64,000 nucleotides of DNA, taken from positions 222,583 through 286,582 of the forward strand of contig JAUHZB010000001.1 of NCBI GenBank assembly GCA_030426125.1. Reading direction: 5' to 3'. Shown one piece after another: positions 3,100 to 64,000 of this stretch (position 1 is the stretch's first letter; the number at the start of each line of letters is the position of its first letter). The DNA is from a bacterium. GTDB taxonomy: Bacteria; Patescibacteriota; Saccharimonadia; Saccharimonadales; AWTP1-31. Below the pieces are notes generated by a model. It searched no databases, was not told where the DNA came from, and worked only from the letters and a program-made list of their open reading frames with translations. Made by a program: the position numbers and the translations under genes.

Positions 3100-6000
3100 T
3101 TATTTGGTAAACATTGGTTTTGGTGTAATCAGCAGTGGCGCTGAATTTTCCAATTTTTTCTCTCTCGGTAAACGTATATTTACTACCAATCCAGACCCCT
3201 TGCTATTTGTTGCCTTTAAATCACCACCCAGCTTAGTAACAACTAGCTTATTAACATATAGACTTAAACCTAGACCAGGCTGGTTGTAGGTTTCTACATC
3301 AGTTGTTTTAGTGAAAGGTTGGAACAATTGATCAAGTTTGTCTTTAGGTATGCCTGGTCCTTGGTCAGTAATTGAAATATTAATGTGTTTATTTACCGGA
3401 TGAGCTTTTATTATTACATTAGTATTTTCGGGGCTAAAGCGAATGGCGTTGTCTAGAGTGGAGCCAATAATTTGCTGAAGCTCTTGTGGCTGTATTTTAG
3501 CTAATGTGTTTTGTGATATATCTAGTTTAATATTAACTTTCTTGGCACTTGCATGGGTACTATATTGGTTAGCTATTTGAGCAATTTCTTGACTTAGATT
3601 TAGTACTGGTGGGTCACTAGATGGCTGGCTAAGACGACTGACACTTGTCAGACTAGCTACTGTAGCAGATAGCATAGATAGACCATTAAACAGAGTTTTC
3701 GTTTCAGGAATAGAGGTTAGTTTTGCGCTGGCTATTTTCAAATTCTCATAATTGTTAGACAGTACGCTAGATGCTTTGTCTATGAAGTCATTTCGTTGCT
3801 TAATTAATCGTTGTTGCGTATATATGGCCTGCTGTTTGATATTTTGGGCTATCTTTAATGTTTCTCTCTGCTTGAAAGTAGCTGCCAAAATGACACAGAT
3901 AAGTAACAGGCAGATAAGTTGTAGGCTTTGCTGAGCTAAGTCTAATTGATACAACTGGGCATTAGCGAACAGAACTACTACCAGGATTAGAGCCCCACTG
4001 ACAATGGCTATCGGGACAAATACAGCTGGGTTTTTTAGGGCAGATCCAGACTTAGGTATGGTTGCCATTAAACTTAGTAGATAGCTCTGATTATCCCCTG
4101 AATCTGCACTAGAACTATTACTACCAACAAGTGCTTGGCTTGACGAGCTATCGGAAATGGCCAGCTGAGCATCAAGGCTAAGATTACTGACATCTTGTTT
4201 GTAATGGGCAAGGGTATTTAATAGATGATCTGCGCTGTTTTTTGGTATTTTACTTTGGGAATTAAGTAATTCAACGGCTCCGGACATGATAGCTACCGGA
4301 GTATTAAGATGATGATTAACTACTTTAATGTAGGTGTCGGTAGCTTCTTTAGAAGCTTGTAGGTTATTTAGTGCATTAATTAATTGTTTGTTGCTTAGGA
4401 ATTGTTTTCTTGCTCGCCAGGCATAGATCATAGTTAGAATAAGTAGGATTAGTAGCAACAACCAGGATATAAATTGACTAGCAATATCTGATACAGACTT
4501 TGGCTCAGTATTGTCAATATCTTGGAATTGGAATGATTCTCCACCCGGGGATCCTAGACCAGGAATAGGATCGTTTGTAACTCTTTGAGGTGTGGGGCTG
4601 TTGGTTGGTGTGTTGGGGGCTATTGGCTGAGTGGTACTTACTGGAACATCACCAGGTGATGGTGGATCTTCAGGGTCGGGTGGATTATCTATTGGTTCAG
4701 GATCTTCTCCTGGTGTTTCTGGGTTGGGGCCCTCGGACCCAACAAATGTTGGGAAAGTGCTGAATTCCGTTCGCCATATATCATCGAAATCCCATAGATT
4801 AAGTGGTGGGTTTTGTTTATTGTTAACGAAATATGTCTCCAACGAGTTGTCGACATTGATAGTGGTACAACTGTCTGTGATATCCACCGGTGATCCTTCA
4901 CCGTCAAGTGATAGAGTGTAGCAATTGGCTTGAGTGGTTCTGGTCTGATCATAGTAGTTATTGGTTAGGGTTATTGAATCTCCAGCTACTGCTTTAATTA
5001 AACCAGCAGATGGACCCAAATTATCTGAAGGCGCGGTTATGGTACCAACCGCGAATGAGTTAATTACACTAGACCCGGTAAGTATTGGTGAAGCTTGGGA
5101 CTGAAGCAGACCGATTAGACCGCCCACAGGTGCTTGAGTTTGGGGATCGTGAACCGCCGTAATGTTCATAGATGAGTAGCTATCCCGGATAGTAGCCGAA
5201 TGTAGCCAACCGGCTAAACCTCCGGTCATAATAACACCTGTGGTGTAGGATAGATCACCAGTTGAATAACTGTTGGCAATATCCGCGTAACCTCTACCAA
5301 CAATTCCTCCAACGCCCGCTGCATTAGAGGTATTGTCTAGTTCTATAGAGACATCACTAAAAGATTTCTGAATTACCGTTTTTAGCTCCAAAGATTGTAA
5401 ACCGCTAGTTCCGACTAGTCCTCCGACTGAGGCAGGGCCGTAAATATCTCCACCATTAGGCCTGTTAACTAATATTTGTCCCGTTACTGAACTAGTGGAT
5501 ATATTAGAACCAGAATCATTACCTATTAACCCGCCAGAGCCCGAAACAGTTTGCTCTTCATCGCTGGCGCCAGACCAGACTTCTAGTCTTAGGTTATTAA
5601 AATGTACGTTGCTAATACTAGCTAAATTTGCAAAGTTGGCTAAACCGGCACCCATTAGGCCAATTTGATTTCCTCCAACTGAGACCATGTCTTTAAAGGT
5701 TATGTCTTTAATAACTGCACCGTACAGGTTGTAGAAAACAGAGTTGTAGGTTCCCAGTTCTTCACTGTTCTGGTAAATTCCAGTTACAGTGTGGCCTTGT
5801 CCATCCAGTTCACCAGCAAAAGAGTAGGCGGTAACACGGAATCCTACTGGATCATCAGTATCCAGGTCACTCCAGTACCAATTTTGAGTCTCACTGCAGT
5901 CTATGTCGCTAGTGAGTTCATATCTAGCATAAATATCATTATTTACTTCCAGGGTTTGTCTGTTGATAAACATGCCTTGGAATTGTTCACAGTCGGAAAT

Positions 6001-8250: not shown

Positions 8251-8416
8251 CAATACTTTAACTGGTCGCACACTTATTTATTCTTAAGCTTATTTTATCA
8301 TGCTTAAGGATGTCTCGGGATTGGAAGAACGGAGTGAGCGAATTAGATTAAGTAAATAGAGTTGACTCAATAAGCACAACGGCTATATAATGTAATCACT
8401 TCTTAAAAACAAAAAA

Positions 8417-9970
8417 ATGAAAATACAAAAAATACCTATTTGGCCGAAGTTAGCTATTGCTGTCTTTGTTGTAGCCGGTAGTTTTATGCTGTTTGGGGGT
8501 CGTGCTGAAGCGGCCACCATTACTGTTGGTGGTGGCTGTACTCTAAGCGATGCCATTACAGCCACAAATAACGATAGTGATGAAGGTAGTTGCGTGAGCG
8601 TTGGGGCTTATGGCGCTGATACTATAAATATCCCAAGTGGCACAACTACCAGAACAGATAATACGCTAGCTACTGATGATCTTAGTATTGTCGGCGCAGG
8701 TGCCGGAACTACTATAGTTGATGGTGACGATAGCTATAGTGGTCTAATTTGCCAACATTCGGGTGGCGGATTGCTAGATTTTTCTATCAGTAACCTGACT
8801 ATCCAAAATACCGGATCAGGTAGCGGGGCCTATCCAATAGCCGCATATAACTGCAACCTTGATTTAGAGAATATTGAAATAACTGATGGAGAAGAAGCTG
8901 TTGGAAATATTTTCTTTACTACCGCCGAAGATGGGGCAACAGCCGATTTGACTGTTAATGATGTATATATCCACGATACAGAAGGTAATGGCTTGACGAT
9001 ACAACTGCAAGGACAGGGTGTTGATGATGCAGTCGATGCCGTGATTGATGGCCTCACGGTGGCTAGTCATGGTGTTAGTGGCCTCACTACCGGCGGAATT
9101 ATGTTAATATCCGGCAATTCTGACACTGCCAGTACCCACACCAGTGATATCTTAGTTCGCAACTCAACTTTTATAGGAGATGACACCTATGATACTTTCG
9201 GCGTGATGGCTCAGACTCAGTCGTCGGTAAACGGAGTCACTGACAATATAGATATTGCACTGCAAAATGTAACCATAGTTGATCATGACATTGCCTCTGA
9301 CTTTCCAGCTTCTGGAGTATTAGCCGCGGCATATGCTGGTAGTGGCGGAAATGCTAATATAGCCTACACTTTAAAGAATGTTCTAATGGCAAATAACACC
9401 GCTGCATCCAGTCCTGCTACTTGTTTAGGGATGCCTTTTGGGGGTGGTGGTACTGAAGTAGCCACCATTACTTCACTGGGTAATAATATAGTAGATGATG
9501 CCAGCTGTAGTTTTGCACAGAGTGGTGACCAGCAAAGTGTCGCCGGCTTGATAGATACCCTTGATGATCCGGCCGCCAACGGTGGTTTTGGAAGAACCTT
9601 AGCACTGCTTGATGGTTCACCGGCTATTGACGGCGGTGGTGTGGTTGCCGGGATTTCTACTGATCAGAGGGGTGTATCTCGACCGCAGGGCTCGGCTTTT
9701 GATGTCGGTTCCTATGAATTAGAGCAAGAATCTAGTGGTGGTGATTCTGAAGAACCAAGCGGTGGCGATCAGCAGGGAAGCAATAACTCCCAGGATTCAG
9801 ATGGCGAAACCACAACACTTGCCGATAGTGGCAGCACTCCCGGTGTACCCGACACCGGCTTTGGCTTTAAGCTTCTAAAAACTAACCCCTTATTAACCTT
9901 AATTGTAAGTACTAGCATATCTGCTGCTTTGTATCTTACAGCCCGTTATTACAAAAGAGCATCTAGCTAA
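8417..9970 (+). CDS. Secreted parallel beta-helix-type repeat protein with a C-terminal VPDTG cell-wall sorting signal
   Basis: Signal peptide (KLAIAVFVVAGSFMLFGGRAEA). An N-terminal GGGCTLSDAITATNND motif of the type seen at the start of beta-helix surface proteins. Gly/Thr/Asn/Asp-rich repeats. C-terminus is VPDTG, a hydrophobic stretch, then RYYKRASS. Confidence 0.75.
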   Translation: MKIQKIPIWPKLAIAVFVVAGSFMLFGGRAEAATITVGGGCTLSDAITATNNDSDEGSCVSVGAYGADTINIPSGTTTRTDNTLATDDLSIVGAGAGTTIVDGDDSYSGLICQHSGGGLLDFSISNLTIQNTGSGSGAYPIAAYNCNLDLENIEITDGEEAVGNIFFTTAEDGATADLTVNDVYIHDTEGNGLTIQLQGQGVDDAVDAVIDGLTVASHGVSGLTTGGIMLISGNSDTASTHTSDILVRNSTFIGDDTYDTFGVMAQTQSSVNGVTDNIDIALQNVTIVDHDIASDFPASGVLAAAYAGSGGNANIAYTLKNVLMANNTAASSPATCLGMPFGGGGTEVATITSLGNNIVDDASCSFAQSGDQQSVAGLIDTLDDPAANGGFGRTLALLDGSPAIDGGGVVAGISTDQRGVSRPQGSAFDVGSYELEQESSGGDSEEPSGGDQQGSNNSQDSDGETTTLADSGSTPGVPDTGFGFKLLKTNPLLTLIVSTSISAALYLTARYYKRASS

Positions 9971-12977: not shown

Positions 12978-15152
12978 TTAAGAAGTGCAAGTCTGTTTAT
13001 TTGAACACTGTTTACCAATCAACACTAAGCTAGTTGATGCTAGAGCAATAGCAGTAAATGTTATCAGTAGTGTGCTTTGTCCTGTATCTGCAAGTGGGCC
13101 AAGTGATTCAGAGCTATCTGCTCCATTTTGTGATGTGTCAGCTAATATAGTTTGATCACCTAGAACTTCACTAAATTCACTGGTTGCCCCAAAACCATCA
13201 GTTGAATTATCTATCTCAGTTGTGGTTGCAGATATGGCATAAGATCCACTTGTAAAGTCTTCTGGTATTGATAATGCTACATTATTGCTGATGGAGCTGG
13301 AAGCGATGATAGTGCTTCCTAAAAATATTTGTCCTTCACCATACCCGCTTGGATCTGCAGTTTCATTTGCGAAAAACTCTACTCTATAGCCATTGGGTGC
13401 ACTATCGTCTACATCGAGATCAAAGTTAATATCTAGATTTCCTTCAGTTGCAGAGGTTGAGTTAATGACAGGGAAGTTTAGGTAATCGTTAGGACCAGTG
13501 TCGGTGTCACCTGCGTCGTTCGTTGTAGCACCAGTATTTATATCTGGACTTTGATTACCATCAGAGTCATCTGCGTTGTCGATGCCGATTCCACCGTTAC
13601 TGTGTATTTTATTTCCAATAATTGAATTACTATCTGGGAACAGTGAGCCTATAGAAATAGAAAAGTTAGAAATACCGATTCCGTCATTGTAGGCTATTAT
13701 GTTCCCATCAGAGTCATCAATACCACCTATTGTGTTGTTAGTTGCCGATGAAGTAATCGCCATTCCTGCCCCACCTATTCCGATACCAGAATCTTCGCCA
13801 TTTAGATTTGTCCCTAGGTTGTTTGATTTAATGATATTATTATCACCCAAGATTGCAAAACCGACAAAACTACTGCCAGAAACGATATTGCTTCTAATAA
13901 TATTATTATCGCCGATAATCGAAATCCCTGATATGGTATTGCCAAGATCTATAGAAGTGTTACGGTTTGTGCCAATAATGTTGTTTGATATTGTTGAAGA
14001 ATTTCCGGTCTGTGTTATACCATGAGTATTACTTGAAACAACATTGTGTGCGTTAGTAGTTAAACCCCCAATGACTACATTATCACCTGAGCTGCCTATG
14101 CCGGCACCCGCATTACCTATATCTGCATTGCCAGTATAATCTGTGCCGACTAAATTACCTTGTATAACCACTTGTCCGCCAGCGGATATACCGTTTGAGC
14201 CATTTCCAGATATAACGTTGGCAGCCCCGCTATCCGTTCCTCCAATTAAGTTGTCTGTTCCAGTGGCTGAATCAACTATTACAATTCCCGAGCTTTCGTT
14301 TGCAATCGCGGAGGTTCCTGCTGCATTCAGCCCTATATAATTACCTTGGATTATCCAGTCACTACAATCTGTCCCGATAGATATTCCTTCGTTACCACCA
14401 CCACCACCACCATCGTTATTACCAGATATTAAATTACGATCAGATGGTGAGGTCCCACCAACTCGTATTCCGTTGTTTGTATGTGCAGAGTTTGTTCCAA
14501 CACCTCTTAGGTTATTTCCTTCTTCGATAAGTCCTGTTGGGTTGGTGCCAATATAGTTACCAGCTATAACAACATCGTCTACAGTATTTATAAAAATACC
14601 GTCTTGAGGCGATTGGTTAATTACTAGACCTCTTATCTGACTCGCATTTGCGCCAGCCTGTAAATTCAAGACACTTTGTACTCCACCGCTTCCATCTATC
14701 TCAATTAACAGTGTCCCATTTAGCGGATTTGGAGAAACGGCTGTATTTTCTCGTGAGCCTGGTTGTGAATAACCATTAATTATTATTGTTTCAGTTATGG
14801 CTGGAAGTGAGGATGACAATGCTATTGTATAGCCATCTTGGCCACCATTAGTAAAATCTGCGGTTTCACCTATATTGAAATTAATGGTGCTGGTATCTGA
14901 ATTTGAGTTGGCTTCTTGGATTGCCGCCCGTAGAGTGCAGTTACCAGAACCGTCATCACATTCACCATTACCAACATTACTATCAGCGCTGTCGAGAGTA
15001 GAGTCAACGGTTATACCATCACCAAGATTAGTGTCGGCTCCAAGAACCGTTGATGGTTTAGTAACGTAGAACACCAACATAATAATAGTAACTACTACGA
15101 TAGCCACTAAAGTTAGTGAAATTCTATTTTTAAAAATTGTATAATTGGGCAT
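12978..15152 (-). CDS. Secreted beta-helix repeat surface protein with a C-terminal LADTG sorting signal
   Basis: N-terminal signal anchor; a CTLRAAIQEANSNSDTSTINF motif; long runs of NxI(I/S)GN-type beta-helix repeats. C-terminus is LADTG, a hydrophobic stretch, then a KQCSNKQ tail. The ATG overlaps the upstream CotH stop (TAATG at 15150..15154). Confidence 0.8.
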   Translation of the reverse strand: MPNYTIFKNRISLTLVAIVVVTIIMLVFYVTKPSTVLGADTNLGDGITVDSTLDSADSNVGNGECDDGSGNCTLRAAIQEANSNSDTSTINFNIGETADFTNGGQDGYTIALSSSLPAITETIIINGYSQPGSRENTAVSPNPLNGTLLIEIDGSGGVQSVLNLQAGANASQIRGLVINQSPQDGIFINTVDDVVIAGNYIGTNPTGLIEEGNNLRGVGTNSAHTNNGIRVGGTSPSDRNLISGNNDGGGGGGNEGISIGTDCSDWIIQGNYIGLNAAGTSAIANESSGIVIVDSATGTDNLIGGTDSGAANVISGNGSNGISAGGQVVIQGNLVGTDYTGNADIGNAGAGIGSSGDNVVIGGLTTNAHNVVSSNTHGITQTGNSSTISNNIIGTNRNTSIDLGNTISGISIIGDNNIIRSNIVSGSSFVGFAILGDNNIIKSNNLGTNLNGEDSGIGIGGAGMAITSSATNNTIGGIDDSDGNIIAYNDGIGISNFSISIGSLFPDSNSIIGNKIHSNGGIGIDNADDSDGNQSPDINTGATTNDAGDTDTGPNDYLNFPVINSTSATEGNLDINFDLDVDDSAPNGYRVEFFANETADPSGYGEGQIFLGSTIIASSSISNNVALSIPEDFTSGSYAISATTTEIDNSTDGFGATSEFSEVLGDQTILADTSQNGADSSESLGPLADTGQSTLLITFTAIALASTSLVLIGKQCSNKQTCTS

Positions 15153-17980
15153 TATTTTGTCGTCCCTCTGTTCGCTAGTTTATATAATAGCATAAGCATC
15201 GAAGACGTAACAATCATAGTAATACCTATAAATAGAATATTTGTTGTCTGACTTTTTTCGGTATTTTGTATTTGGTTAGCATTTAAATTAGTTTGTTCGT
15301 TATTGCCCGGAATCTTTTTTGAAATATCTTCATCTTTTTCTTTTGCTTGGTCAATAACTGTATTGTCGTTGGCAAATGAACCATTGTCTCTAGCCTTTTC
15401 TGTTGATATTTCTGGGCCTGAGCTGCTATCAACTTCATTTATTGTCGTGTTCGTATAAACTTTGGAGCCATCAGAGCGTCTCAAGCCATATTCACTATCT
15501 CCTGCGACTTGTCCAATATATTCTGCGAGAACTAGCTTGCCGCTACCAATCTCTTGTCTAAACATAGCGTCATCACTTACTACATACCCAGTACCATTTT
15601 TCGGTAGAACACTTCCTCCAGGGAAAGTGAAATTTGTACCATCTATTGTCCAGTTAGATATATCAACTGCAATATTATTAGGATTACTTAGTTTAATATA
15701 GTTATAATTTGCGTTTTGTGAAGCCGTGTATGAAATATCTTCTATATCAATAATCACATTGTTTAATTGGGCTGCAGGAATTAGACCTCTGCTAACATAG
15801 TTCGTTAGGAACCGATCTCTTAGTTTGTCTAGGCTGAAGCGCAGTATGGAAAACCTATTTGCAGGAGTGTACGGTTCATAAGTGGCATGTTGGAATGGTA
15901 AGTCTTCCAGTCGCAAGCCTCCACCAGTTTTCTGGTCCAGAATAGATTGCATTACAAGTGGGTTATCAGGATCTTGTCCGACCACATCAGTTATGTAATC
16001 TCTGACTGGTTGAATATTTGTATCATATTCATAGGTATACCACTTTTGATAATCCAAATCTGATGCAGTTAAACTTGTGGCTGCTTCATCGTCTAGCCAT
16101 TCTTGGATAGTATTATTAGCATAAATTTCATCAACTAATGTCCTTACCCTTCGCTTATACATTTCTTGTAATTCTGGATCATCCCATATAGCAGTGAATA
16201 CATTTCGATCATCTACAGAAATTGATGGAACAACATCATAAGGGTTAATCAGGTCATCGTATCCCTGCGGGGGAACCCCAAGACCAATATTGTGCACACT
16301 CATTGTTAGGTCAAGGTCCCAAGGTAAGAATGACCAACGTTCACGATCACCAGCATTGTAAATACTGAATGTATTTGATGCCAGACTCCAATCGTGACTT
16401 CTTGCAACAGACTGAGCTGCCATATAATTTATTATGTTTGTAATTTCAATATTATCTCTTAAATAATCTAACTTAGCTCCTCCTGATAGTGAGCTTAGTG
16501 CACTCTTTAAATTTTGTAGTCTGGTTGTATCATTATTATCTGGCTGCTTTTTTTCAAACTCATCTTCTATAATTTCTGCATCCTTATATGCTGGATTTCT
16601 GTCCAGCCACTCTTTTTCATATTTTTCAGCTAATGTATAGGCTCCTTCAAATTCGCCATTTTTTTGCAGTTGAATTTTTTTAACTTGTGGCACTGGGAAC
16701 CCAGCGTGTTTAAAAATCCTCCATGATAACAGTGAAACTATATACTCATTATTCGGAAAATCTGTATTTAGATGAAACTCGTTAAGCGGGTATTCTAATA
16801 CCCCTGGTATAGCAAGCTTGTGGTTTTTCGGCAATTTAATTTTGAAAGGTAATTTAGGAAAAGTCCTAGAGTATTCACCCTTAATTCTTACCTCAGAATT
16901 ATCTATAACCTGATTGCCGTAGACAATAACACAGGAAAAATAGTCTTCCTGATCATCTGGTGTGGCGATCAGATCAGTATAGTCACTTTCGGAAATAAAC
17001 CACTCCAGTATTGGGGTAGATCCAACTTCTTGAGATGGGTCTACCACCACATAACCCTGGTAATTAATGCTATCATCATTGCCAGGTAGTCCAGCTGTGT
17101 CTGAGCCTGGACTGGTGGCTTCTACTCTATACCTCACCAGTGAGCCAGCTGTTTGGGTTGGTATTTGTCCGCTGTAGATGCCGTCACTAGCGGTTTGGTC
17201 TCCATTGTTCCCGCTGTCATTCATGGCTATTGTTTCTTCATCTTCAAACATGACTTTGTACACAAGATTTACTGTGTCAACATTGCTCGCTTGTACGGTT
17301 ATGGTTGGAGTGTCGGTTGGTTGGATAGCCTCTAGACTACTTGTGTTTTTTGGTGTACTTAGACTAGACAGTTCTGGCAGGTCAGCAGAGGAGAGAGAGT
17401 TTTCAGTGTTTGGTGTACCACCATCACTAAGGCTGGCTCCCCATGAAGTGGATAGACTGTTATCGAGACTGGAGTCTTTGAGTTCTAATGAAGGACCTAG
17501 TTCATCTGGTGTGACTGGCCAGGGAGATACGTCAAGATAGTCAACACTATCTACGAGGGTATTGGAAGAATCTCGTAGTTCTATGTTTTCACCACCATTG
17601 CTGAGGTTGCCACTGTACTCTGCTAGGACTGTTTGACTGTAGGTTGTAGTGGTTTGAGATGCAGAGGGTGAAACTAAAACGAAGTCATTGGCACCGATAC
17701 TCATACCGGAAGAAAAACATAAACTAATGCCGTCAGTGAAACACCAACCATTTAGGTCTATTGGTGAGCCAGTAGTATTGTATAGTTCTAGAAATTCATC
17801 GTCTTCGTTATCTGAAGATGGATGGTACATAAGTTCATTAATGACTACATCACCACTAGCTGCGGAGGCGAGGTTAGGGTTAATGGTTATGTGCAAAAGA
17901 GAACAGACTAGGCTAGCTAGCAATACAATTACTATAGTTAGTTGATTGTATTTAATTGTCAGAAATAAACGACTTTGCAT
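15152..17980 (-). CDS. CotH-family (atypical kinase) protein with N- and C-terminal lamin-tail domains and a C-terminal TM anchor
   Basis: Signal peptide. LTD motif VVINELMYHPSSDNEDDEFLELYNTTGSPIDLNGWCF. CotH-type motif RWSFLPWDLDLTMS. A second LTD-like segment (YIKLSNPNNIAVDISNWTIDGTNFTFPGG). C-terminal hydrophobic helix plus KLANRGTTK. Confidence 0.75.
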   Translation of the reverse strand: MQSRLFLTIKYNQLTIVIVLLASLVCSLLHITINPNLASAASGDVVINELMYHPSSDNEDDEFLELYNTTGSPIDLNGWCFTDGISLCFSSGMSIGANDFVLVSPSASQTTTTYSQTVLAEYSGNLSNGGENIELRDSSNTLVDSVDYLDVSPWPVTPDELGPSLELKDSSLDNSLSTSWGASLSDGGTPNTENSLSSADLPELSSLSTPKNTSSLEAIQPTDTPTITVQASNVDTVNLVYKVMFEDEETIAMNDSGNNGDQTASDGIYSGQIPTQTAGSLVRYRVEATSPGSDTAGLPGNDDSINYQGYVVVDPSQEVGSTPILEWFISESDYTDLIATPDDQEDYFSCVIVYGNQVIDNSEVRIKGEYSRTFPKLPFKIKLPKNHKLAIPGVLEYPLNEFHLNTDFPNNEYIVSLLSWRIFKHAGFPVPQVKKIQLQKNGEFEGAYTLAEKYEKEWLDRNPAYKDAEIIEDEFEKKQPDNNDTTRLQNLKSALSSLSGGAKLDYLRDNIEITNIINYMAAQSVARSHDWSLASNTFSIYNAGDRERWSFLPWDLDLTMSVHNIGLGVPPQGYDDLINPYDVVPSISVDDRNVFTAIWDDPELQEMYKRRVRTLVDEIYANNTIQEWLDDEAATSLTASDLDYQKWYTYEYDTNIQPVRDYITDVVGQDPDNPLVMQSILDQKTGGGLRLEDLPFQHATYEPYTPANRFSILRFSLDKLRDRFLTNYVSRGLIPAAQLNNVIIDIEDISYTASQNANYNYIKLSNPNNIAVDISNWTIDGTNFTFPGGSVLPKNGTGYVVSDDAMFRQEIGSGKLVLAEYIGQVAGDSEYGLRRSDGSKVYTNTTINEVDSSSGPEISTEKARDNGSFANDNTVIDQAKEKDEDISKKIPGNNEQTNLNANQIQNTEKSQTTNILFIGITMIVTSSMLMLLYKLANRGTTK

Positions 17981-22873: not shown

Positions 22874-22950
22874 GCACCCGTAGCTCAGCGGATTAGAGCA
22901 TCTGTCTTCGGAACAGAGGGTCGGGGGTTCGAATCCCTCCGGGTGTACCA
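22874..22950 (+). tRNA. tRNA-Arg (anticodon UCG), CCA encoded
   Basis: Hand-folded cloverleaf. Acceptor GCACCCG/CGGGUGU (G1-U72 wobble). D stem GCUC/GAGC. Anticodon stem UCUGU/ACAGA with loop CUUCGGA. T arm GGGGG-UUCGAAU-CCCUC. 3' ACCA. Confidence 0.9.
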
Positions 22951-35407: not shown

Positions 35408-37090
35408 ATGGCCGCCAACGCCCAATCTTCTACTAGTTCAAAAAAATTGCAGAAAATGACTCCGCAATTAGCATCTCCAACTATTCTGGGGATCATGCTA
35501 TTAATTTTAGGAAACTATTACAGTGGGCTAACTTATACGAATGATCCAAGGTTGGTATTCGGTCTGGTGGGGGTATTAGCTGTTCTTGGAGCTAGTCATT
35601 TTATTGCCAAACTAAAGTTTGGTTCGGCTCATGCTCCGTATTTAATAATCTACCATTTACTGCTTAGCTTTCTATTGATCGCGGTTGTGCCGACACTTTC
35701 TTTTTATTTGTATATTTGGGTTTTACTGCTTTATTTAACCGACTATTACTACGGTCTTAAAGGGGCTATAGTCAGTAGTAGTGCTCTACTATTAGTTATG
35801 CTTGGTGGTACGTATTACCAGCAAGGGGGCTTAAGTAGTAAGAACTTAGTTAATATATCGGCTCAGTTTATCATTATCCTATTCGTTATTAAGTTAATGT
35901 CGTCGCTTAGTACCGCCAATCGTCATAAGCGTAGCGAGACTATAACCAAGGTGGCTCGAGCCGAAGGTGAGCACGATAGGTTAGTAGCCCTGATCAACTC
36001 GATGAGTGACGCAGTTATCGCCACCGATGATCAAGGCGTGATCGTTACCTATAACGCAGCTGCCCTGGATATTTTAGATACCAATGAAACCTTGACCGGT
36101 AAAAAAATAGTAGATTACTTGAAAGTTGTCTCAGCAGAAGACAAGAAGCAAAATATCTTCGATATTGCCAAAAAAACTGATTCTATCCAGAGAAGGTCTG
36201 ATCTTCGAATAGCCTACGGCAAAGACGATAGTCTAGCGCTAGACATTACTATCAGCCGGGTAGCTAAGTCGACCGTGCTGGACAGACGCGAAGGTTACAC
36301 TTTTCTGCTAAGAGATATTACCTTGCAAAAGACTTTAGATGATGAAAAAGACTTGTTTATTCATGAGGTTAGTCATGAACTTCGAAACCCAATTACCGTT
36401 GCCGAAGGCGAAATGTCTATGGCAATAATGCTGGCAGAAAAACCTCAGCTAGATTTCGAGCAGATCAAACAAACCGTCGACCGGGGCCACAAGCAAGTAG
36501 TTTTCTTAGGCGAGATGATAAATGATCTATCGGCCTTGTCTAGAGCAACCCACGATAAACAGACAATGAAGGTTGAGCAGTTCTCTATTAAAGAAGTACT
36601 AGAAGGCCTGGAAGCTGACTATAAGGCCCAAGCTAAAAAGAAAGGTTTATACCTTAAACTTGAGCTAGCCCCTTCAGTTCCAGAAGTTACATCCTCGAAA
36701 CTATACCTAAAAGAAATTTTAGAAAACTTTATAACCAATGCTATTAAATACACCAAAAAGGGCGGTGTAACCATCAAAGGTCAGGCTATAGATAAAGATC
36801 ATATCATGCTAGGCGTTAGTGACACTGGTATTGGTATTGCTAAAGCTGAACTGGATAAGGTTTACCGAAAGTTCTGGCGCTCCGAGGACCCATCAACTCG
36901 AGAAGTTAGTGGCACCGGACTGGGGCTATACGTCACAAAACACTTAGCCGACAACATTGGTGCTGAAATTAAGGTAGAGTCTGAATTAAAGCAGGGGTCT
37001 ACTTTCTCTATCATTATGTCTACAAAGGGCAAAGATCAGCCCATTTCTCGCTCACCGATACGAAAGTTCTTTAAGTTTGGTGGTAAGTAA
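35408..37090 (+). CDS. Membrane sensor histidine kinase (multi-TM N-terminus, PAS-like, HisKA, HATPase_c)
   Basis: H-box FIHEVSHELRNPITV, N box NFITNAIKYT, G1 VSDTGIGI, F YRKFWR, G2 GTGLGLYV. Five or six N-terminal TM helices. Confidence 0.9.
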   Translation: MAANAQSSTSSKKLQKMTPQLASPTILGIMLLILGNYYSGLTYTNDPRLVFGLVGVLAVLGASHFIAKLKFGSAHAPYLIIYHLLLSFLLIAVVPTLSFYLYIWVLLLYLTDYYYGLKGAIVSSSALLLVMLGGTYYQQGGLSSKNLVNISAQFIIILFVIKLMSSLSTANRHKRSETITKVARAEGEHDRLVALINSMSDAVIATDDQGVIVTYNAAALDILDTNETLTGKKIVDYLKVVSAEDKKQNIFDIAKKTDSIQRRSDLRIAYGKDDSLALDITISRVAKSTVLDRREGYTFLLRDITLQKTLDDEKDLFIHEVSHELRNPITVAEGEMSMAIMLAEKPQLDFEQIKQTVDRGHKQVVFLGEMINDLSALSRATHDKQTMKVEQFSIKEVLEGLEADYKAQAKKKGLYLKLELAPSVPEVTSSKLYLKEILENFITNAIKYTKKGGVTIKGQAIDKDHIMLGVSDTGIGIAKAELDKVYRKFWRSEDPSTREVSGTGLGLYVTKHLADNIGAEIKVESELKQGSTFSIIMSTKGKDQPISRSPIRKFFKFGGK

Positions 37091-37091
37091 A

Positions 37092-38783
37092 CTAGTAATT
37101 TAGTTCTCTAAGAACAGAATCAACAGTCTGTACCTGTATTTTACTTTTCTTAATTAGCTCTAGATGCTTGGTATAAATTTCTTTATTGATTGTGAAGAAA
37201 TCATCTGAAGGCTCAATACCATGATAAACCAGGATTAGCCATCCGTTTTGTGAGTGTGCTTTATTGAGTGCAAACTGTATGTCTTTGGCTGATGTTTCTT
37301 TGTCGATGAATAAAACCTTTAGATTGTATACATCAAAGTTTTGGGCAGTATTGATGCCCCTTTCTGTTCCTCTATGGGATCTATAGGTCGACCGGATAGT
37401 TTCCATCGATAGATAGTCTATTTTCCCAAAGGCAGATGCAAAATCAAAAGACGTGTTTGGCTTTAAGGTGCTTAAGTCACTGTGTGCATCGACTAGCTCG
37501 GAGTTGACCACATTACGAGATTCGAGAGTTAGGTCAATATGATTTTGTCCATGCGAAGCAACTTGATGATTGCTGAGTAGTAGTTCGGCTACATGCTCGT
37601 CAGATACAAAACCAGGATTGTTTATGGTGCCAGGATTAATATAAAAGGTTGTTTCAAAATTGAAGGCATCAGCAATCCGCGCCCCATTCTGATAACTAGA
37701 CAACCAACCATCATCAAAAGTAATGCTGACTCTTGGTTTATTGAAAGATTTAGCTTCTGCCAGCTTGTACATCTCAATATCAGAGTTTGTCATTTTACCT
37801 ACATTAGATAATTGAAGTGAAGGTTTAACGTTGATCGCTTTAAGATTAATAGTAAAATCGATTGTTACTTCAGTAGTTTCCGAGTTCGGAGAGAATTCTC
37901 GTAATGGAACATATTTTGACTTGCTACTGCTGAGCTCGTAGTCGAGGCCTAGTTGGACTATTGTGTCTGATGAGTAATCAAATTTAAGCCTATATCTTTC
38001 AAACTCATTTACAGGAACAGATTGTCTTGGTAACCATCCAGCTTGAGAATCGTTATTTGCAGATAATACTTCGTTGGTGAATAGATCAACAGCCTTTTTT
38101 TGACCTTTGCTTTCTATGCCCGATGGTTGCTGGTATTCCCATAGGCTATCTTTTAGTAGGTTATCTTTATTGATCGTTTGTTTTTCATATGGCTTTGTAA
38201 TAGCGTAGGCTGAATCTATTTGGAGGTAACCATTTGTACTTAGTGTGACGGCAAAGCGTATAGATTCTGTTTTTCTGTCGACATATGTAACGCCAGACAT
38301 AGTTGAAAGCGGATAGTCATAATCTGGATAATTTTTTATAAATTCTGTAGTGACAGATCCATCAGTGCTCGTTTTTTCTACTACAAGATCAAATTTTGTG
38401 TCTGTAATGTAGAAAGCTTTATAAAAATAGCCAGTATTTGGTTTTGTTTTGATTCTCGGGGTATATACAATTGCGGATCCATTAGTATAATCACTGACAC
38501 TTACCTTTAGTGCGCCTTTGTCGACTTTACCTTTTTGTTCTTCGGTTTCTACGTTTAGTTCACCTGATGCGGACACTTTCCAGTTTGTTGCCATACCATC
38601 ACTAAATTTACTTAAATCATGATTTAATATAAGGTTTTCGTCTTTTGAAATAAGATCGTAGGTTTGTGCTCGATTGCTGTCAGTTAAAATAAATATCCAT
38701 AAAATAATAAACAATACACTAAGAAGTGGCATTAGTATTGATGGTTTTCGGATGCTTTGTAGCAAAGATCTTAGCTGTTTCAT
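37092..38783 (-). CDS. Polysaccharide deacetylase (NodB domain) with two N-terminal CBM4/9-like modules
   Basis: N-terminal TM; two NL(I/L)xx...W-type beta-sandwich modules; C-terminal NodB motifs VSITFDDGW and ASHGQNH. The ATG overlaps the GT2 stop (ATGA at 38780..38783). Confidence 0.8.
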   Translation of the reverse strand: MKQLRSLLQSIRKPSILMPLLSVLFIILWIFILTDSNRAQTYDLISKDENLILNHDLSKFSDGMATNWKVSASGELNVETEEQKGKVDKGALKVSVSDYTNGSAIVYTPRIKTKPNTGYFYKAFYITDTKFDLVVEKTSTDGSVTTEFIKNYPDYDYPLSTMSGVTYVDRKTESIRFAVTLSTNGYLQIDSAYAITKPYEKQTINKDNLLKDSLWEYQQPSGIESKGQKKAVDLFTNEVLSANNDSQAGWLPRQSVPVNEFERYRLKFDYSSDTIVQLGLDYELSSSKSKYVPLREFSPNSETTEVTIDFTINLKAINVKPSLQLSNVGKMTNSDIEMYKLAEAKSFNKPRVSITFDDGWLSSYQNGARIADAFNFETTFYINPGTINNPGFVSDEHVAELLLSNHQVASHGQNHIDLTLESRNVVNSELVDAHSDLSTLKPNTSFDFASAFGKIDYLSMETIRSTYRSHRGTERGINTAQNFDVYNLKVLFIDKETSAKDIQFALNKAHSQNGWLILVYHGIEPSDDFFTINKEIYTKHLELIKKSKIQVQTVDSVLRELNY

Positions 38784-40054
38784 GCTGCAGCCCTCGCTGA
38801 TCTTTCGGTGGTTGTGTAAGCCCCGTCATCTTTTTTCGGGTTAGTTAGGTTTTTAATATTCACAAAGCTTCGGTACATGGCGGTTACTTGGACAGCAGAC
38901 ATAATAAATGAAGTTAGATACATAGTCGGAGAAAGTATAGTTAGCCTGAGTTGTTCTTTTTTGCTGAGGTGTTCGTCCGACCAGATGGCTAGCCAGGTTA
39001 TTAGGCTGAATGCGCTAGCTGCTCCAATGAACAGTATTGGGTTGTTCCCGGTAACTGCTAAATATGTGAAGGTAACAAGAAATATAGGTTCGAGTATCAG
39101 CATAAATTCTGACCAAAGCGAGTAGGGCATTTTTATCCAAGTTAAGAATGGGTTTTGCTTTTTATCGATCGAGAAGAATAAACTTTTATTAAAAAATTGG
39201 GCTTGTAGGCTGCCGTATTTCCATCGATATCTTTGTTTGAAAAGTGACTTATAGGTAGGTACTGGCTCAGTATAAATGACATAATCACTGGCATATTTCA
39301 GTCCACCAGCTTTACCCAGTTTTTTGGTCATACGCATAGACAGCTCAATGTCCTCGGTTTTCATTCGGTCGTCGAATCCGCCAACTTTTTTTAAAACTGA
39401 TGCTCGGTAACTTGCCCCAGCTCCACCGATAATTACTTCACTATTGACTAAAGTGTTAAACTTTTTTGAACGGAAACTTACTAAGTATTCCAGTTTTTGC
39501 ATTAATCCCAGGATAGTGCCATCTTCGTTAATTTTAATATTCGCAGCTACAGCAGAAACGCCAGGGTCAGCAAAATGTTCCACGAGCCTGTGTATCATGT
39601 ATGGGTTCATCTGGCAGTCAGCATCGTAAGCTATAACAATTTCACCAGAGGCTCTTCTCAGACCTGAATTAATGGCCGATCCTCTGCCTCCATTTTTTCG
39701 TTTTGCCACCAGAAAGATCTTTTTTTGGCCACTGTAATCTTTAATGAATTTTCGAACAATTTCTCTAGTTTTATCGGTTGATTTATCATCTGAGACGATT
39801 ATTTCTAAATTCTTATATCTTGATTTAGATAATGTTCTTAGGCAATTCTCAATCGCAACTTCTTCATTGAAAGCCGGAATAATAATACTTACCAGCGGAC
39901 GATAATGTTTTCTTTTGTTTTTAGATATTCTTTTTGGATTCTTTTTTTCACTTAGCATTTCTATGTCGTATAGGCTTGAGCCAATTAACATCAACATTCC
40001 TAGAGCCGTCCCTAGCATTACGCTTACCGTGAATAGTATCATTAAATAAGTCAT
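38780..40054 (-). CDS. Processive family-2 glycosyltransferase (PgaC/IcaA/chitin- or cellulose-synthase-like)
   Basis: SIIIPAFNEE, DDKSTDKT, YDADC (DxD), QRYRWKYG (QxxRW), plus N- and C-terminal TM helices. Confidence 0.85.
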   Translation of the reverse strand: MTYLMILFTVSVMLGTALGMLMLIGSSLYDIEMLSEKKNPKRISKNKRKHYRPLVSIIIPAFNEEVAIENCLRTLSKSRYKNLEIIVSDDKSTDKTREIVRKFIKDYSGQKKIFLVAKRKNGGRGSAINSGLRRASGEIVIAYDADCQMNPYMIHRLVEHFADPGVSAVAANIKINEDGTILGLMQKLEYLVSFRSKKFNTLVNSEVIIGGAGASYRASVLKKVGGFDDRMKTEDIELSMRMTKKLGKAGGLKYASDYVIYTEPVPTYKSLFKQRYRWKYGSLQAQFFNKSLFFSIDKKQNPFLTWIKMPYSLWSEFMLILEPIFLVTFTYLAVTGNNPILFIGAASAFSLITWLAIWSDEHLSKKEQLRLTILSPTMYLTSFIMSAVQVTAMYRSFVNIKNLTNPKKDDGAYTTTERSARAAA

Positions 40055-40626
40055 TACGCTGTTACCTCGATTAGCTCAAAAGTAAACAGTCTGCGTTGCT
40101 CAAACCAGGCTCCGCTACAAGTTTGCACGGTTAATATTGCTGGCCCTTTGTATTCAAATAAAGAGGTGTCATTTGGTTCAACATCTTTTACAGACCTAAG
40201 TATATAGTGGAATACAGAACCTTCTTTAGTGGTGATTGATGCTTTAGTTCCTACTTGCAGGTCGACCATTGGACCAAATACTTCAGGTTTGTTATGGCCG
40301 TATATGAAAGTATTGCCTGATTGGTTATTTGGTTTGGGAGTAATAAGAGCGTGATGTGCAGAGTCTGAACTTAGTGTCCATTCTTGGGTTTCAGGCTTGT
40401 ATACTCCATCTTGAATATCTGTAGATAAGTTAATCTCAGGAATTTGTAGCGACTCAGGGCTGCCTTCTGTGTAGTCGGGCAGTTTTGTGTCGGGCTTTTG
40501 TATCTCAACCTGTTGCACAGAAAAGGCGTCAGCTGCTCTTGGCTTAGGCTTAATAGCGTAAATAACCCCAGTAATTGCTAATATATTAAATACAGCAATT
40601 ACAACCATTATTTTTACTAGACTCAT
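40054..40626 (-). CDS. Sortase family transpeptidase
   Basis: N-terminal TM anchor, His motif FIYGHN, Cys motif LTVQTCSG and the downstream Arg (EQRRL). The stop overlaps the GT2 ATG (TAATG). Confidence 0.85.
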   Translation of the reverse strand: MSLVKIMVVIAVFNILAITGVIYAIKPKPRAADAFSVQQVEIQKPDTKLPDYTEGSPESLQIPEINLSTDIQDGVYKPETQEWTLSSDSAHHALITPKPNNQSGNTFIYGHNKPEVFGPMVDLQVGTKASITTKEGSVFHYILRSVKDVEPNDTSLFEYKGPAILTVQTCSGAWFEQRRLFTFELIEVTA

Positions 40627-40645: not shown

Positions 40646-40822
40646 TTAGCCGTTTTTCCGCTTATGAATTGTTACGCCAACTTGTACTAGAATTAAAGTT
40701 ACTCCTGTAACAACTGAAGCAATGCCAACAATTGTCAATAACGGCATTCCACCTGTATTAGGAAGAATAGCGATACCAGTCGCTGTTGTTACTGTTCCTA
40801 GGACGTTTCCTTGATAATCCAT
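40646..40822 (-). CDS. 58-aa LPNTG mini-protein (a sorting signal with almost no passenger)
   Basis: Below the ORF-track cutoff; translated by hand codon by codon as MDYQGNVLGTVTTATGIAILPNTGGMPLLTIVGIASVVTGVTLILVQVGVTIHKRKNG. AGGAG lies 5 nt upstream of the ATG and an in-frame stop lies upstream at 40874..40876. It ends 19 nt before the sortase start. Confidence 0.65.
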   Translation of the reverse strand: MDYQGNVLGTVTTATGIAILPNTGGMPLLTIVGIASVVTGVTLILVQVGVTIHKRKNG

Positions 40823-40870
40823 AATTACTCCTTTGCATAATAGCCTTATCTGGCCAATTACATTACGTTT

Positions 40871-40899
40871 ATATTACTACAAAAGTGATATTTTGTAAA
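40871..40899 (-). promoter_or_regulatory. Sigma70-like promoter of the LPNTG-sortase-GT2-deacetylase operon
   Basis: Minus strand: TTTACA (40899..40894), 17 nt, TAATAT (40876..40871). Confidence 0.5.
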
Positions 40900-41037: not shown

Positions 41038-41114
41038 GGGCCAGTAGCTCAGCTGGTTAGAGCACCTGCCTCTTAAGCAGGGTGTCGAGGGTTCGAGTCC
41101 CTCCTGGCCCTCCA
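41038..41114 (+). tRNA. tRNA-Lys (anticodon CUU), CCA encoded
   Basis: Acceptor GGGCCAG/CUGGCCC. D stem GCUC/GAGC. Anticodon stem CCUGC/GCAGG with loop CUCUUAA. T arm GAGGG-UUCGAGU-CCCUC. 3' UCCA. Confidence 0.9.
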
Positions 41115-62008: not shown

Positions 62009-62608
62009 CTAAAATAGCTTGGCTATTTGTTCCGTAACCTGCTGACTATCTATATTACTAACTTCTCGTGGTTCACTGACGGTAACGCTAATAACCCGAT
62101 TACCTTTTCTGGTAACTAGTTGCCGAGAATCAACTGCAAAGTAGCTCTCGTCATTTATCTCGAGCTGCTTTACATTGCTTTTGTTTTTCGTTGAACTAAG
62201 TGACTGTGAAGCGCTGTCATCACTACTGAGGTCTTTAATTACAATCGTTACGGCTCGGGCAGGCTTTTGCTTGGTAGTGTAGTTACAAACTGATACTAAC
62301 CTGGGTTCGACTACGTCTTTGTACGAGCCACCAACTTTAACTACTTCTGCTTGAAGCGCATCACTTACCTTATTGACTGAAGCTGTAGAACAGGCAAAGC
62401 TAGATTTATTTTCTTCTTCAGGCATATTGAAGGTCTCCGTTTGTTGCTGATCCCTGACACTATAGCCAAGGAATGTGCCCTGATTTATCAACCGCTCAGC
62501 TATTAATACAATTAAGAGTATTACAATTACTCCAATAACAATTTGTTTAATAGATAATTTTTTAAACCAGCTTGCAACTGACTTTAAATGTTTTTTACTT
62601 GCCTTCAT
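62009..62608 (-). CDS. Membrane-anchored hypothetical protein
   Basis: A basic N-terminus plus the TM helix IVIGVIVILLIVLIA. It overlaps the upstream gene by 14 nt. Confidence 0.55.
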   Translation of the reverse strand: MKASKKHLKSVASWFKKLSIKQIVIGVIVILLIVLIAERLINQGTFLGYSVRDQQQTETFNMPEEENKSSFACSTASVNKVSDALQAEVVKVGGSYKDVVEPRLVSVCNYTTKQKPARAVTIVIKDLSSDDSASQSLSSTKNKSNVKQLEINDESYFAVDSRQLVTRKGNRVISVTVSEPREVSNIDSQQVTEQIAKLF

Positions 62609-64000
62609 TTTTCCGCTTCTGCCACCTCTTCAACACTAGCGCTCCTCCCGAGATCAGCAGAGCAATGGCTGCGACCTTAGCAGTCATTGCTCCTGCTCCG
62701 GTGTCGGCAAGGAATGAAGTAATGCTGCTAGGTATGGTTGTGGTGTCACCATCATTGTCTTCTGCAGACTCATCAACTACGCCTAGTCCAACTGGATCAA
62801 CAATAATGCGGTTGACTGACTCATCAGTGTCTAAGGTTCCACCATCAGTGACTTGGTAGTCTACGGTTAGCACATTTGTTGAATCAATCTCTGCTTGACC
62901 AAGGGTGTAGCTAGCAACTGTACTGTAGCTATCACTGTTGCTATGGAACTTCCTGAGGGTGTAATCAAGGTTAGTTTCATCAAAGTAGTACTTTGTAATG
63001 TCTGCAGTGAAGCCATCATCTTCACAGTTAATCTCAAAGGCTAGCAACCCAAGAGGGTATTGGTAGCCTGAGTCAGTCACCGAGTTGGCTGACTCTTGGT
63101 TAACACCACTGGTGTAGACACTACATTCACTAGCTACTTCTAGAACCACTCGTTTCCCAGTCACTGAGCTAACATAACTAGCGACGTTTGCTTGCTCTGA
63201 GTCAGCAGTACCGTCATCGTTAGCATCACCACTGTTTGGACCATTGTCTTCAATGGAGTCAGAGATACCATCTTTATCTCCATCGTCAGTAGTTATCTTG
63301 TCGAAGTTGTCATTGTTAATTTCGTCTAGCTGGTCTTCAGTGGCTGACCCAAATTCGTTACTGAGGTCAATAGAGTCATTGTCTATGAAGAATCCAGTGT
63401 AGCCCTGAGATACGTAGTTGGTGAAAGATTGACTAGCCCCAACCTGAACTGTGAAGTCTAGCCTTATGGTAATACTGTCATCAGCTTCCATGACTTGACC
63501 AGCCCCAATGTAGACACAGACTAACATGCCATGATCTGGGTGATCGGCAGTAACTGGTCCAGTAAAGTTGGAAGCTGGAGCACCTAGGTCATTACAGAAA
63601 ATGTCAGCATTGTCGTCATCGTCGTAGGCTAGGTCATTAGACGGGTAGACATCAGCGAATACAAAGTTAGCACCCACCGAACCGGTTAGGGTATTTAGAT
63701 TGACTGGCATAGGCCCACGGTTAGTTAGCGTAACATCGTATTGAACTGTTTGTCCTGGTGTTATGTCAAAAGGAGCTACCATTTCTTTTTCAATAGTGAA
63801 GTCAGCCACCGGCAAACTAACAGCTACGTTATTTATCTCTTCGCCTACGTAACAGTCAATGATGTCCATTGGTGGATCAGCACAAATGTTCCCAGGGCCA
63901 CCAAAGGCACTTGGATCACTAAGCGTTACAATGTCTGGATCATCAGCTAGCCAACCAGTTATTACATTGTTAGTAAATACTAGATCGGAAGTAGCATCTA
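62595..64000 (-). CDS. Surface protein, C-terminal part (the N-terminus lies beyond the right window edge), with a DUF11-like module, acidic TSP3-like Ca-binding repeats and an LADTG sorting signal
   Basis: The reading frame remains open from 63869 to the window end (checked by hand, no stop). Motifs: TPGQTVQYDVTLTNRGPMPV, DGDKDGISDSIEDNGPNSGDANDDGTADS, and C-terminal LADTG, a hydrophobic stretch, then KRWQKRKNEGK. Confidence 0.75.
   Translation of the reverse strand, partial: DATSDLVFTNNVITGWLADDPDIVTLSDPSAFGGPGNICADPPMDIIDCYVGEEINNVAVSLPVADFTIEKEMVAPFDITPGQTVQYDVTLTNRGPMPVNLNTLTGSVGANFVFADVYPSNDLAYDDDDNADIFCNDLGAPASNFTGPVTADHPDHGMLVCVYIGAGQVMEADDSITIRLDFTVQVGASQSFTNYVSQGYTGFFIDNDSIDLSNEFGSATEDQLDEINNDNFDKITTDDGDKDGISDSIEDNGPNSGDANDDGTADSEQANVASYVSSVTGKRVVLEVASECSVYTSGVNQESANSVTDSGYQYPLGLLAFEINCEDDGFTADITKYYFDETNLDYTLRKFHSNSDSYSTVASYTLGQAEIDSTNVLTVDYQVTDGGTLDTDESVNRIIVDPVGLGVVDESAEDNDGDTTTIPSSITSFLADTGAGAMTAKVAAIALLISGGALVLKRWQKRKNEGK

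Follow-up and report, generated by a model that had tools for sequence, protein, structure and literature searches.

Sortase biology assumes that substrates are exported by the Sec pathway and carry a passenger, the passenger being the point of anchoring them. The window considered here, a stretch of 64,000 nucleotides (nt) from contig JAUHZB010000001.1 of a bacterium of the Saccharimonadales, contains an open reading frame (ORF) of 58 codons directly upstream of a sortase gene, and this mini-ORF appears to encode a cell-wall sorting signal and little else. The locus raises the question of whether such an ORF is a gene at all and, if so, what a sorting signal lacking both a Sec signal and a passenger might do. 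As judged from its conservation, the ORF is a genuine conserved small-protein gene of Saccharibacteria. Our preferred explanation, held with slightly better than even confidence, is that its product, a cell-wall sorting signal with neither leader nor passenger, is a substrate dedicated to the sortase encoded on the same transcript.

A conserved small gene upstream of a sortase

The 58-amino-acid (aa) protein, MDYQGNVLGTVTTATGIAILPNTGGMPLLTIVGIASVVTGVTLILVQVGVTIHKRKNG, is encoded on the minus strand from 40822 to 40646 and begins with ATG. The gene, its parts and the elements preceding it are as follows (window coordinates).

40646..40822, minus strand: mini-LPXTG gene, 58 aa plus stop; member of a conserved family under purifying selection
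40828..40833, minus strand: Shine-Dalgarno (SD) sequence AAGGAG, with a 5-nt spacer to the mini-ORF ATG at 40822-40820
40766..40822, minus strand: N-tail, residues 1-19 (MDYQGNVLGTVTTATGIAI), rich in G/A/V/T and without a basic n-region; family motifs are an M-Y/x start and VLG
40751..40765, minus strand: LPNTG pentapeptide, residues 20-24, with a predicted sortase scissile bond at T23/G24
40667..40744, minus strand: membrane helix, residues 27-52, Hessa sum -1.56; Gly40 (40703-40705) is near-invariant in the family, with S/T 4 residues earlier
40649..40666, minus strand: basic, predicted cytoplasmic tail HKRKNG, residues 53-58; the C-tail net charge in the family is +2 to +5
40871..40899, minus strand: promoter-like element TTTACA-17-TAATAT, about 49 nt 5' of the mini-ORF start; a consensus match only

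The stop codon (40648-40646) lies 19 nt from the sortase ATG at 40626. The mini-ORF is the sole small ORF in the 64 kb to combine an LPxTG motif, a hydrophobic stretch and a basic tail, and no opposite-strand ORF of 40 aa or more overlaps it. The original prediction had described a 58-aa ORF with AGGAG 5 nt upstream, an LPNTG motif, a long hydrophobic segment, an HKRK tail and a 19-nt gap to the sortase, all of which is borne out by the sequence. Its count of 20 residues before LPNTG is off by one, there being 19 (the motif Leu is L20), and its description of the ORF as unannotated holds in part: the ORF is called by gene callers in NCBI and Logan assemblies, but it is nameless there. In a promoter scan of the region, the number of promoter-type sites around the mini-ORF was not above shuffled expectation, and a terminator scan revealed no terminator between the mini-ORF and the sortase. 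An Rfam scan found no riboswitch in the leader or the intergenic region, its sole match being the neighbouring tRNA gene. This gene, for tRNA-Lys(CTT), occupies 41038-41114 on the plus strand and is divergent, 215 nt upstream of the mini-ORF.

When the 58-mer alone was used as query, a word-indexed search matched only that sequence itself; the mini-family was recovered via synteny and exhaustive phmmer rather than by single-sequence searching of that kind. Against 1.84 billion representatives, phmmer with a cut-off of E<=1e-3 gave 13 matches, all small (58-84 aa) and aligned over most of the query. A profile built from these matches recovered at least 242 clusters, almost all of 56-67 aa, every one of which is unnamed or labelled 'hypothetical protein' and none of which has a Pfam domain. 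Synteny was assessed by starting from an alignment of the sortase, which led to 80 genome loci, all from metagenome-assembled genomes and nearly all labelled Saccharibacteria or Saccharimonadales; 77 had enough upstream sequence to be testable. In 68 of the 77, the orthologous sortase gene is directly preceded, on its own strand, by a similarly built ORF of 51-68 aa that ends 6-265 nt before the sortase start. These 68 loci span sortases that are only 35-60% identical. A GGAG-type SD sequence precedes the start in 68/68, a start having been accepted only if an SD sequence was present, and the start codon is ATG in 65 and GTG in 3. The pentapeptide is LPNTG in 46 of the loci, LPATG in 8 and LPKTG in 3, with a few other LPxT(G/A/S) variants. 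In the remaining testable loci, the slot 5' of the sortase is taken by an LPXTG protein of 120-200 aa bearing a classical Sec signal (7 loci) or contains nothing recognisable (2 loci). As a reciprocal check, the family member P0075, which was found by sequence alone, has the gene order mini-ORF, sortase, family-2 glycosyltransferase (GT2), deacetylase.

The ratio of non-synonymous to synonymous substitution (dN/dS), calculated by the Nei-Gojobori method for 41 equal-length pairs of mini-ORFs, ranges from 0.03 to 0.41 in 39 informative pairs, with a median of 0.125; two near-identical pairs have zero non-synonymous changes, and all 41 pairs are below 0.5. This median indicates strong purifying selection on the mini-protein. 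The original prediction had called for a search for homologous small ORFs 5' of sortases in related genomes and for a look at their substitution pattern. Such ORFs are indeed present in the 68 loci described above, and the pattern is that of purifying selection. A search of the full-text literature found no paper on this gene, on a mini-LPXTG gene, or on a sortase or sortase substrate of Saccharibacteria, and the mini-family, with its hypothetical and unnamed clusters, deserves its own model in the protein-family databases.

The genes downstream of the mini-ORF are the following.

40054..40626, minus strand: sortase of 190 aa, anchored in the membrane by an N-terminal helix, with a catalytic His111/Cys170/Arg178 triad
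38780..40054, minus strand: processive GT2, 424 aa, PgaC/IcaA-like; 1-nt overlap between its start and the end of the sortase gene
37092..38783, minus strand: membrane-anchored polysaccharide deacetylase, 563 aa, PF01522; 4-nt overlap between its start and the end of the GT2 gene

The sortase is matched by PF04203 (Pfam Sortase) at E=4e-16, with 59.2 bits against a cut-off of 26.6, and His111, Cys170 and Arg178 are invariant in 34 homologues, as expected of the canonical triad. Homologues of the sortase are labelled Candidatus Saccharimonadales or Saccharibacteria. The enzyme is only distantly related to solved sortases and scores under the NCBIfam cut-off of every sortase class and under that of TIGR01076. 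Class D is nearest, with 30.7 bits against a cut-off of 165 for NF033746 and 33.9 against 140 for NF058671. In class D, SrtC of Bacillus anthracis has dedicated substrates, BasH and BasI, which carry LPNTA and are both normal Sec-exported proteins. The likeness to the present case lies in a specialised sortase that serves one or a few LPNT(A/G) substrates beside another sortase for bulk proteins; the differences are the Sec export of BasH and BasI and the scores of the window's enzyme, which at 31-34 bits are far under the cut-offs of 140-165. The anchor helix of the sortase is encoded at 40560-40626 on the minus strand, and the anchors in the 68 loci usually have a mid-helix (A/G)G.

The GT2 protein matches TIGR03937 (PgaC/IcaA) at E=1e-42 and TIGR03111 (XrtG-associated GT2) at E=3e-27, both below cut-off, and carries DxD, TED and QRYRW motifs together with terminal membrane helices. 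An orthologous GT2 gene (at least 30% identity) is the next gene downstream, in the same orientation, in 51 of the 68 mini-ORF loci and directly precedes the pair in 2 more. A deacetylase gene is found within 6 kb in 40 of the 68, downstream in some and upstream in others; the big upstream genes in other loci whose products end ...YIDEYD...GNWISGQYK also encode PF01522 proteins. The window's other neighbours (a methyltransferase, a histidine kinase and a 131-aa ORF) recur in just 0-2 of the 80 loci, which argues for a conserved cassette rather than background synteny. By this gene-order evidence, the mini-ORF and sortase pair is the core of the cassette, and the GT2 and deacetylase genes are frequent partners. 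Their coupling suggests a poly-N-acetylglucosamine (PNAG)-like or chitin-like, partly deacetylated surface polymer. The original prediction had recognised the pairing of mini-ORF and sortase; the operon with GT2 and deacetylase, the conservation of the helix and the longer proteins in the same slot had all been missed. The histidine kinase of the window, a PAS-containing, WalK/PhoR-like protein, is encoded convergently with the deacetylase (35408-37090, plus strand), a single nucleotide separating the ends of the two genes, and recurs in 2 of the 80 loci.

Anatomy, predicted topology and origin of the mini-protein

The mini-protein has the three features of a sorting signal, namely an LPXTG-type pentapeptide near the C-terminus, a hydrophobic segment and a positively charged tail. 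An N-terminal Sec signal and an exported passenger are absent, with just 19 residues before the motif and no basic n-region among them. Column statistics were computed over 67 unique mini-family sequences. The L, P, T and G of the pentapeptide are near-invariant (64-66 of 67) and, at 4.0-4.2 bits, form the most conserved columns; the X position is N in 47 sequences, A in 8 and K in 5. The N-tails of the family comprise 11-29 residues, 68% of them G/A/V/T, and positions -11 (a Gly of VLG type) and -4 (G/A) are conserved. The C-terminal tail is of the type KKAYKA, and a juxtamembrane R-x3-KK-A-Y-K-A pattern runs through the family. In scans of 14 family members, no family-specific NCBIfam or Pfam model was found, only weak LPXTG-anchor matches; 7 or 8 of the 14 match the LPXTG-anchor models, at lenient E-values only.

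Across the family, the net charge of the N-tail is -1 to +1 and that of the C-tail +2 to +5. On the Hessa scale, the family N-tails sum to +2.8 to +11.6 kcal/mol and so are not predicted to span the membrane, and the C-terminal helix has a median of -1.1. The charge bias and the Hessa sums together predict a single-span N-out/C-in protein with LPNTG at the outer face. The lack of a basic n-region in the N-tail, which had been claimed earlier, is borne out (its Hessa sum in the window protein is +8.9), and the accompanying idea of leaderless N-out/C-in insertion, itself a prediction, fits the charge distribution and the polar N-tail. The coat protein of phage Pf3 exemplifies this type of protein (approximately 45-60 aa), being inserted N-out as a single span by a leaderless, YidC-dependent route. 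It resembles the mini-protein in having a short N-tail without a basic region, one helix, a basic C-terminus and an N-out/C-in orientation by the positive-inside rule; however, the two have no sequence relationship, and Pf3 coat is not a transpeptidase substrate.

An AlphaFold monomer model built with 106 sequences places a confident helix at residues 27-57, with a predicted local distance difference test (pLDDT) score of 84-92, and a low-confidence helix at residues 7-18 of the N-tail (pLDDT 57-63), with LPNTGGMP as a loop. By this model, a helix-loop-helix hairpin may form instead of a translocated N-tail. Pilin-like polymerisation through a Lys was considered as a family-wide mechanism and rejected, a basic residue being present in just 31 of 69 N-tails.

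Evidence bearing on the origin of the family comes from the longer proteins that take its place in some loci, of which the following are 177-199 aa LPXTG proteins with a Sec signal.

L020, 5407-5940: long-form slot protein
L045, 5390-5980: long-form slot protein
L051, 5237-5788: long-form slot protein
L062, 5366-5944: long-form slot protein
L064, 5357-5956: long-form slot protein
L068, 3800-4378: long-form slot protein

The passenger of the long forms is rich in Asn, Ser, Thr and Gly, contains Cys and begins ...NTGPGSNN...; no Pfam family was found in the three that were scanned (L020, L062 and L064). The mini-family hidden Markov model (HMM) matches the last 58 residues of L051 (183 aa, with a Sec signal) over positions 6-59 with 31.4 bits, the helix Gly included, and gives no score with the LADTG or VPDTG proteins of the window. 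Consequently, the mini-protein and the C-terminal part of a conventional substrate from the same slot are homologous. This suggests, on the strength of the profile match, that it is a passenger-less and leader-less derivative since kept by selection, and the long form is probably its ancestral or alternative form. With conventional LPXTG substrates (PF00746/TIGR01167), the mini-protein shares the tripartite signal (LPxTG, a hydrophobic stretch of about 25 residues and a basic tail) as well as the position of its gene beside a sortase. It differs from them in the absence of a Sec signal and passenger, with just 11-29 residues before the motif in the family, in the conservation of its helix by position, and in HMM scores that lie under the thresholds.

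Candidate functions and the weighing of alternatives

Taken together, these results have led us to the following model for a dedicated substrate. The mini-gene, with its strong SD sequence and conserved frame and length, heads an operon in which the sortase, the PgaC/IcaA-like processive glycosyltransferase and the polysaccharide deacetylase follow it. From its charge and hydrophobicity, the 58-aa protein is predicted to insert without a Sec signal, N-out/C-in, the basic tail staying in the cytoplasm while the short, near-uncharged N-tail would be translocated in the manner of Pf3 coat, probably through YidC. LPNTG would thereby come to lie on the outer side of the membrane, close to the anchored sortase. 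The helix of the mini-protein, with its conserved S/TxxxG, and the Gly-containing (A/G)G anchor helix of the sortase may dock together, and this may help to bring the motif to the enzyme. The sortase would then cleave between T23 and G24, giving a 23-residue peptide and a 35-residue C-peptide (G24-G58). The G/A/V/T-rich 23-residue peptide would be transferred to an amine of the envelope, most likely that of a peptidoglycan precursor, and the C-peptide would be left in the membrane. By homology, the mini-family derives from, or alternates with, the 120-200 aa Sec-exported LPXTG protein of the same slot. Its purpose could be a peptide coat, a wall modification coupled to the neighbouring N-acetylglucosamine (GlcNAc)-polymer system, or regulation.

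Several points weigh against this model. To our knowledge, no natural sortase substrate has been shown to work without a Sec signal, and we infer the cleavage and anchoring of the mini-protein from its sequence. Its scores fall under the curated thresholds, with 13.4 bits against 20 for PF00746 and 12.7 against 15.9 for TIGR01167. Furthermore, the helix is more constrained than expected. A Gly at +20 from the motif Leu (Gly40 in the window protein) is present in 63 of 67 sequences and at 3.9 bits is the best column after the pentapeptide; S/T at +16, 4 residues before this Gly, gives a small-xxx-small pattern, and there is an Arg at +30. The length after the motif is 35 +/- 1 in 55 of 67 sequences (range 30-36). 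The helix is thus conserved by position and length beyond what a simple stop-transfer needs, which is unusual for a mere sorting signal and points to a specific helix-helix contact or to a role for the C-peptide. The M-Y start (55 of 67) and the VLG motif of the N-tail are also conserved, and the model does not explain them. In addition, 13 of the 68 mini-ORF and sortase pairs are without an orthologous GT2 next door, so that the polysaccharide link is frequent (about 78%) and not obligatory. Finally, the second sortase that would serve the LADTG proteins is assumed, and this from 64 kb of the genome.

The constraint on the helix is an argument for an alternative in which the mini-protein is a partner or pseudo-substrate of the sortase, docking through its helix and LPxTG and stabilising, localising, protecting or gating the enzyme in the manner of SafA. 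The near-invariant Gly40, the S/T at -4 and the fixed length after the motif would all be accounted for, as would the mid-helix (A/G)G that is usual in the sortase anchors and the tight, apparently one-to-one pairing in the loci seen. There is also a precedent: actinobacterial SafA (sortase-associated factor), a 52-aa sortase-linked protein, binds the membrane domain of its sortase and, by binding this anchor helix, protects the enzyme from the signal peptidase LepB2 (PMC9282373). The likeness extends to a single-helix protein of about 50-60 aa, linked to a sortase, conserved phylum-wide and plausibly in contact with the anchor helix. However, SafA is encoded downstream of srtA, is N-in/C-out, and carries a PGP motif and an exoplasmic FPW motif but not an LPXTG (PMC9282373), whereas the mini-gene lies upstream, its product has an LPxTG and the opposite predicted topology, and the FPW and PGP motifs are absent from both the window protein and the family consensus. 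Moreover, the scissile pentapeptide is the most conserved part of the protein and stands beside an enzyme with an intact triad, so that an uncleaved LPxTG would need special pleading, and a normal Sec-exported substrate has a C-terminus homologous to the mini-protein. We therefore regard a partner role as unlikely. The same conservation of the helix by position, together with the R-x3-KK-A-Y-K-A tail, could also mean that the 35-residue C-peptide is the product that matters, acting either on the PgaC/IcaA-like synthase, as a small subunit or regulator comparable to IcaD or PgaD, or as a membrane signal for a histidine kinase. Translational coupling links the operon to the GT2 gene, which is adjacent in 51 of 68 loci, a histidine kinase gene converges on the operon in the window, and SGO_1180 of Streptococcus gordonii senses a remnant of a sorting signal (described in PMC11326707). 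The streptococcal remnant, C-pep, shows that what is left of a sorting signal in the membrane can be functional (PMC11326707), but it is derived from large adhesins. On the other hand, 13 of the 68 pairs have no orthologous GT2 beside them, the histidine kinase is a neighbour in just 2 of 80 loci, and the conserved features of the N-tail (M-Y, VLG and the G at -4) are not needed by such a model. IcaD and PgaD are two-helix subunits, whereas the mini-protein has one helix and no detected homology to them; none of the 14 mini-family members scanned with Pfam and NCBIfam matched their families. A role centred on the C-peptide is accordingly improbable, and the mini-protein is not SafA, nor is it IcaD or PgaD.

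A further alternative concerns the acceptor of the reaction. Here the amine would be that of glucosamine (GlcN), made by the deacetylase within the GlcNAc polymer of the GT2, and the 23-mer would decorate the exopolysaccharide or tether it to the membrane or the wall. The outcome would be a sortase-built peptide-polysaccharide conjugate, that is, a leaderless, hydrophobic 23-residue peptide on a partly de-N-acetylated GlcNAc polymer, or a tether of polymer or wall to the membrane. This idea has the merit of accounting for all four genes of the cassette (polymer, amine generation, transpeptidase and acyl donor), and the linkage to the deacetylase is kept even where its position has been rearranged. 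In vitro, Staphylococcus aureus SrtA can join LPXTG peptides to certain amino-sugars; nevertheless, the C2 amine of GlcN performs poorly there as a nucleophile for sortase, and we know of no natural sortase that uses a sugar amine. Exosortase systems are likewise linked to exopolysaccharide: in exosortase/PEP-CTERM loci, too, a sorting transpeptidase is encoded with a GT2 polysaccharide synthase, and the GT2 of the window matches the XrtG-associated family TIGR03111. They differ in that the present enzyme is a PF04203 sortase and not an exosortase, the motif is LPxTG and not PEP-CTERM, and the GT2 is under the family cut-off. Ligation to the polysaccharide is purely inferential and has no precedent, and a minority of the mini-ORF and sortase pairs persist without an adjacent GT2 or deacetylase; for either form of the conjugate, we see a slim chance. 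If the conjugate were real, it would be a new class of envelope polymer, and the mini-protein the first natural sortase substrate to need neither a Sec signal nor a passenger. Lastly, the ORF could be spurious, or the decaying, functionless remnant of a truncated surface-protein gene, as its homology to the C-terminus of the longer LPXTG proteins in the same slot, its shortness and the lack of a database name might indicate. However, the dN/dS values (0.03-0.41, median 0.125, in 39 informative pairs), the conservation of the SD sequence, the start, the M-Y (55 of 67) and the 51-68 aa length in 68 loci, and the existence of at least 242 clusters leave this reading scarcely any probability, and on the conservation evidence it is effectively refuted.

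A phylum-level lineage of ultrasmall epibiotic bacteria thus keeps a leaderless, signal-only gene under purifying selection, locked to its own sortase and usually also to a PNAG-like or chitin-like synthase and a deacetylase. What is new here is most likely a sortase substrate reduced to its signal, freed from Sec, conserved in a large uncultivated lineage and so far undescribed as a kind. Should the peptide be processed, its function would lie either in the sortase reaction itself, as a modification of the wall or polymer, or in the membrane remnant, and either would widen the roles of sortases. Processing would also open a way into the envelope of Patescibacteria, which is poorly understood and through which they attach to host bacteria, and the pair of mini-protein and sortase may provide a naturally minimal sortase tag. 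Natural fusions of mini-protein and sortase were sought among the longer sortase homologues P0020 and P0028; neither is a fusion, the extra length being C-terminal and unrelated.

Other surface proteins and a putative second sortase

Three large proteins of the window carry sorting signals of another type, LADTG or VPDTG, and have no Pfam domain (8417-9970, plus strand; 12978-15152, minus strand; 62595-63869, minus strand). The contrast between their motifs and LPNTG, which had been pointed out earlier, is real and extends to all three. It suggests, as a matter of motif comparison, a dedicated enzyme-substrate pair, with another sortase (perhaps class E-like) encoded elsewhere for the large proteins; a tblastn search found no second sortase within the 64-kb window. 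In the flanks of the 80 loci (6 kb to either side), other large LPXTG-type proteins were too few to compare motif classes.

That a Saccharibacterium can carry two sortases, of types other than the one in the cassette, is illustrated by Southlakia epibionticum ML1 in its supplementary transposon-sequencing tables (PMC10633639). One, SEML1_0327 (448 aa), is scored essential and is encoded beside an essential PEGA-domain protein; the other, the class E sortase SEML1_0711 (199 aa), is non-essential, and its disruption gives a growth advantage (PMC10633639). The mini-LPXTG/GT2 cassette is not evident in these tables (PMC10633639). A parallel of a different kind is GspA of Actinomyces oris, a sortase substrate that ties sortase to a glycopolymer pathway and matters for envelope homeostasis and not for an adhesin passenger (PMC9282373). 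However, GspA is full-size, Sec-exported and glycosylated by an LCP enzyme, and neither GspA nor C-pep is a stand-alone mini-gene.

Two further genes of the window encode large proteins. Immediately upstream of the gene for the 724-aa LADTG protein, and abutting it, lies a gene for a 942-aa protein with CotH kinase and Lamin-tail domains (15152-17980, minus strand). A 1723-aa protein encoded at 3100-8271 on the minus strand contains DUF285 repeats, fn3 and GLUG motifs and, at its C-terminus, a HATPase_c domain; it has the appearance of a giant, surface-exposed, sensor-kinase-like protein. A second tRNA gene, for tRNA-Arg(TCG), is located at 22874-22950.

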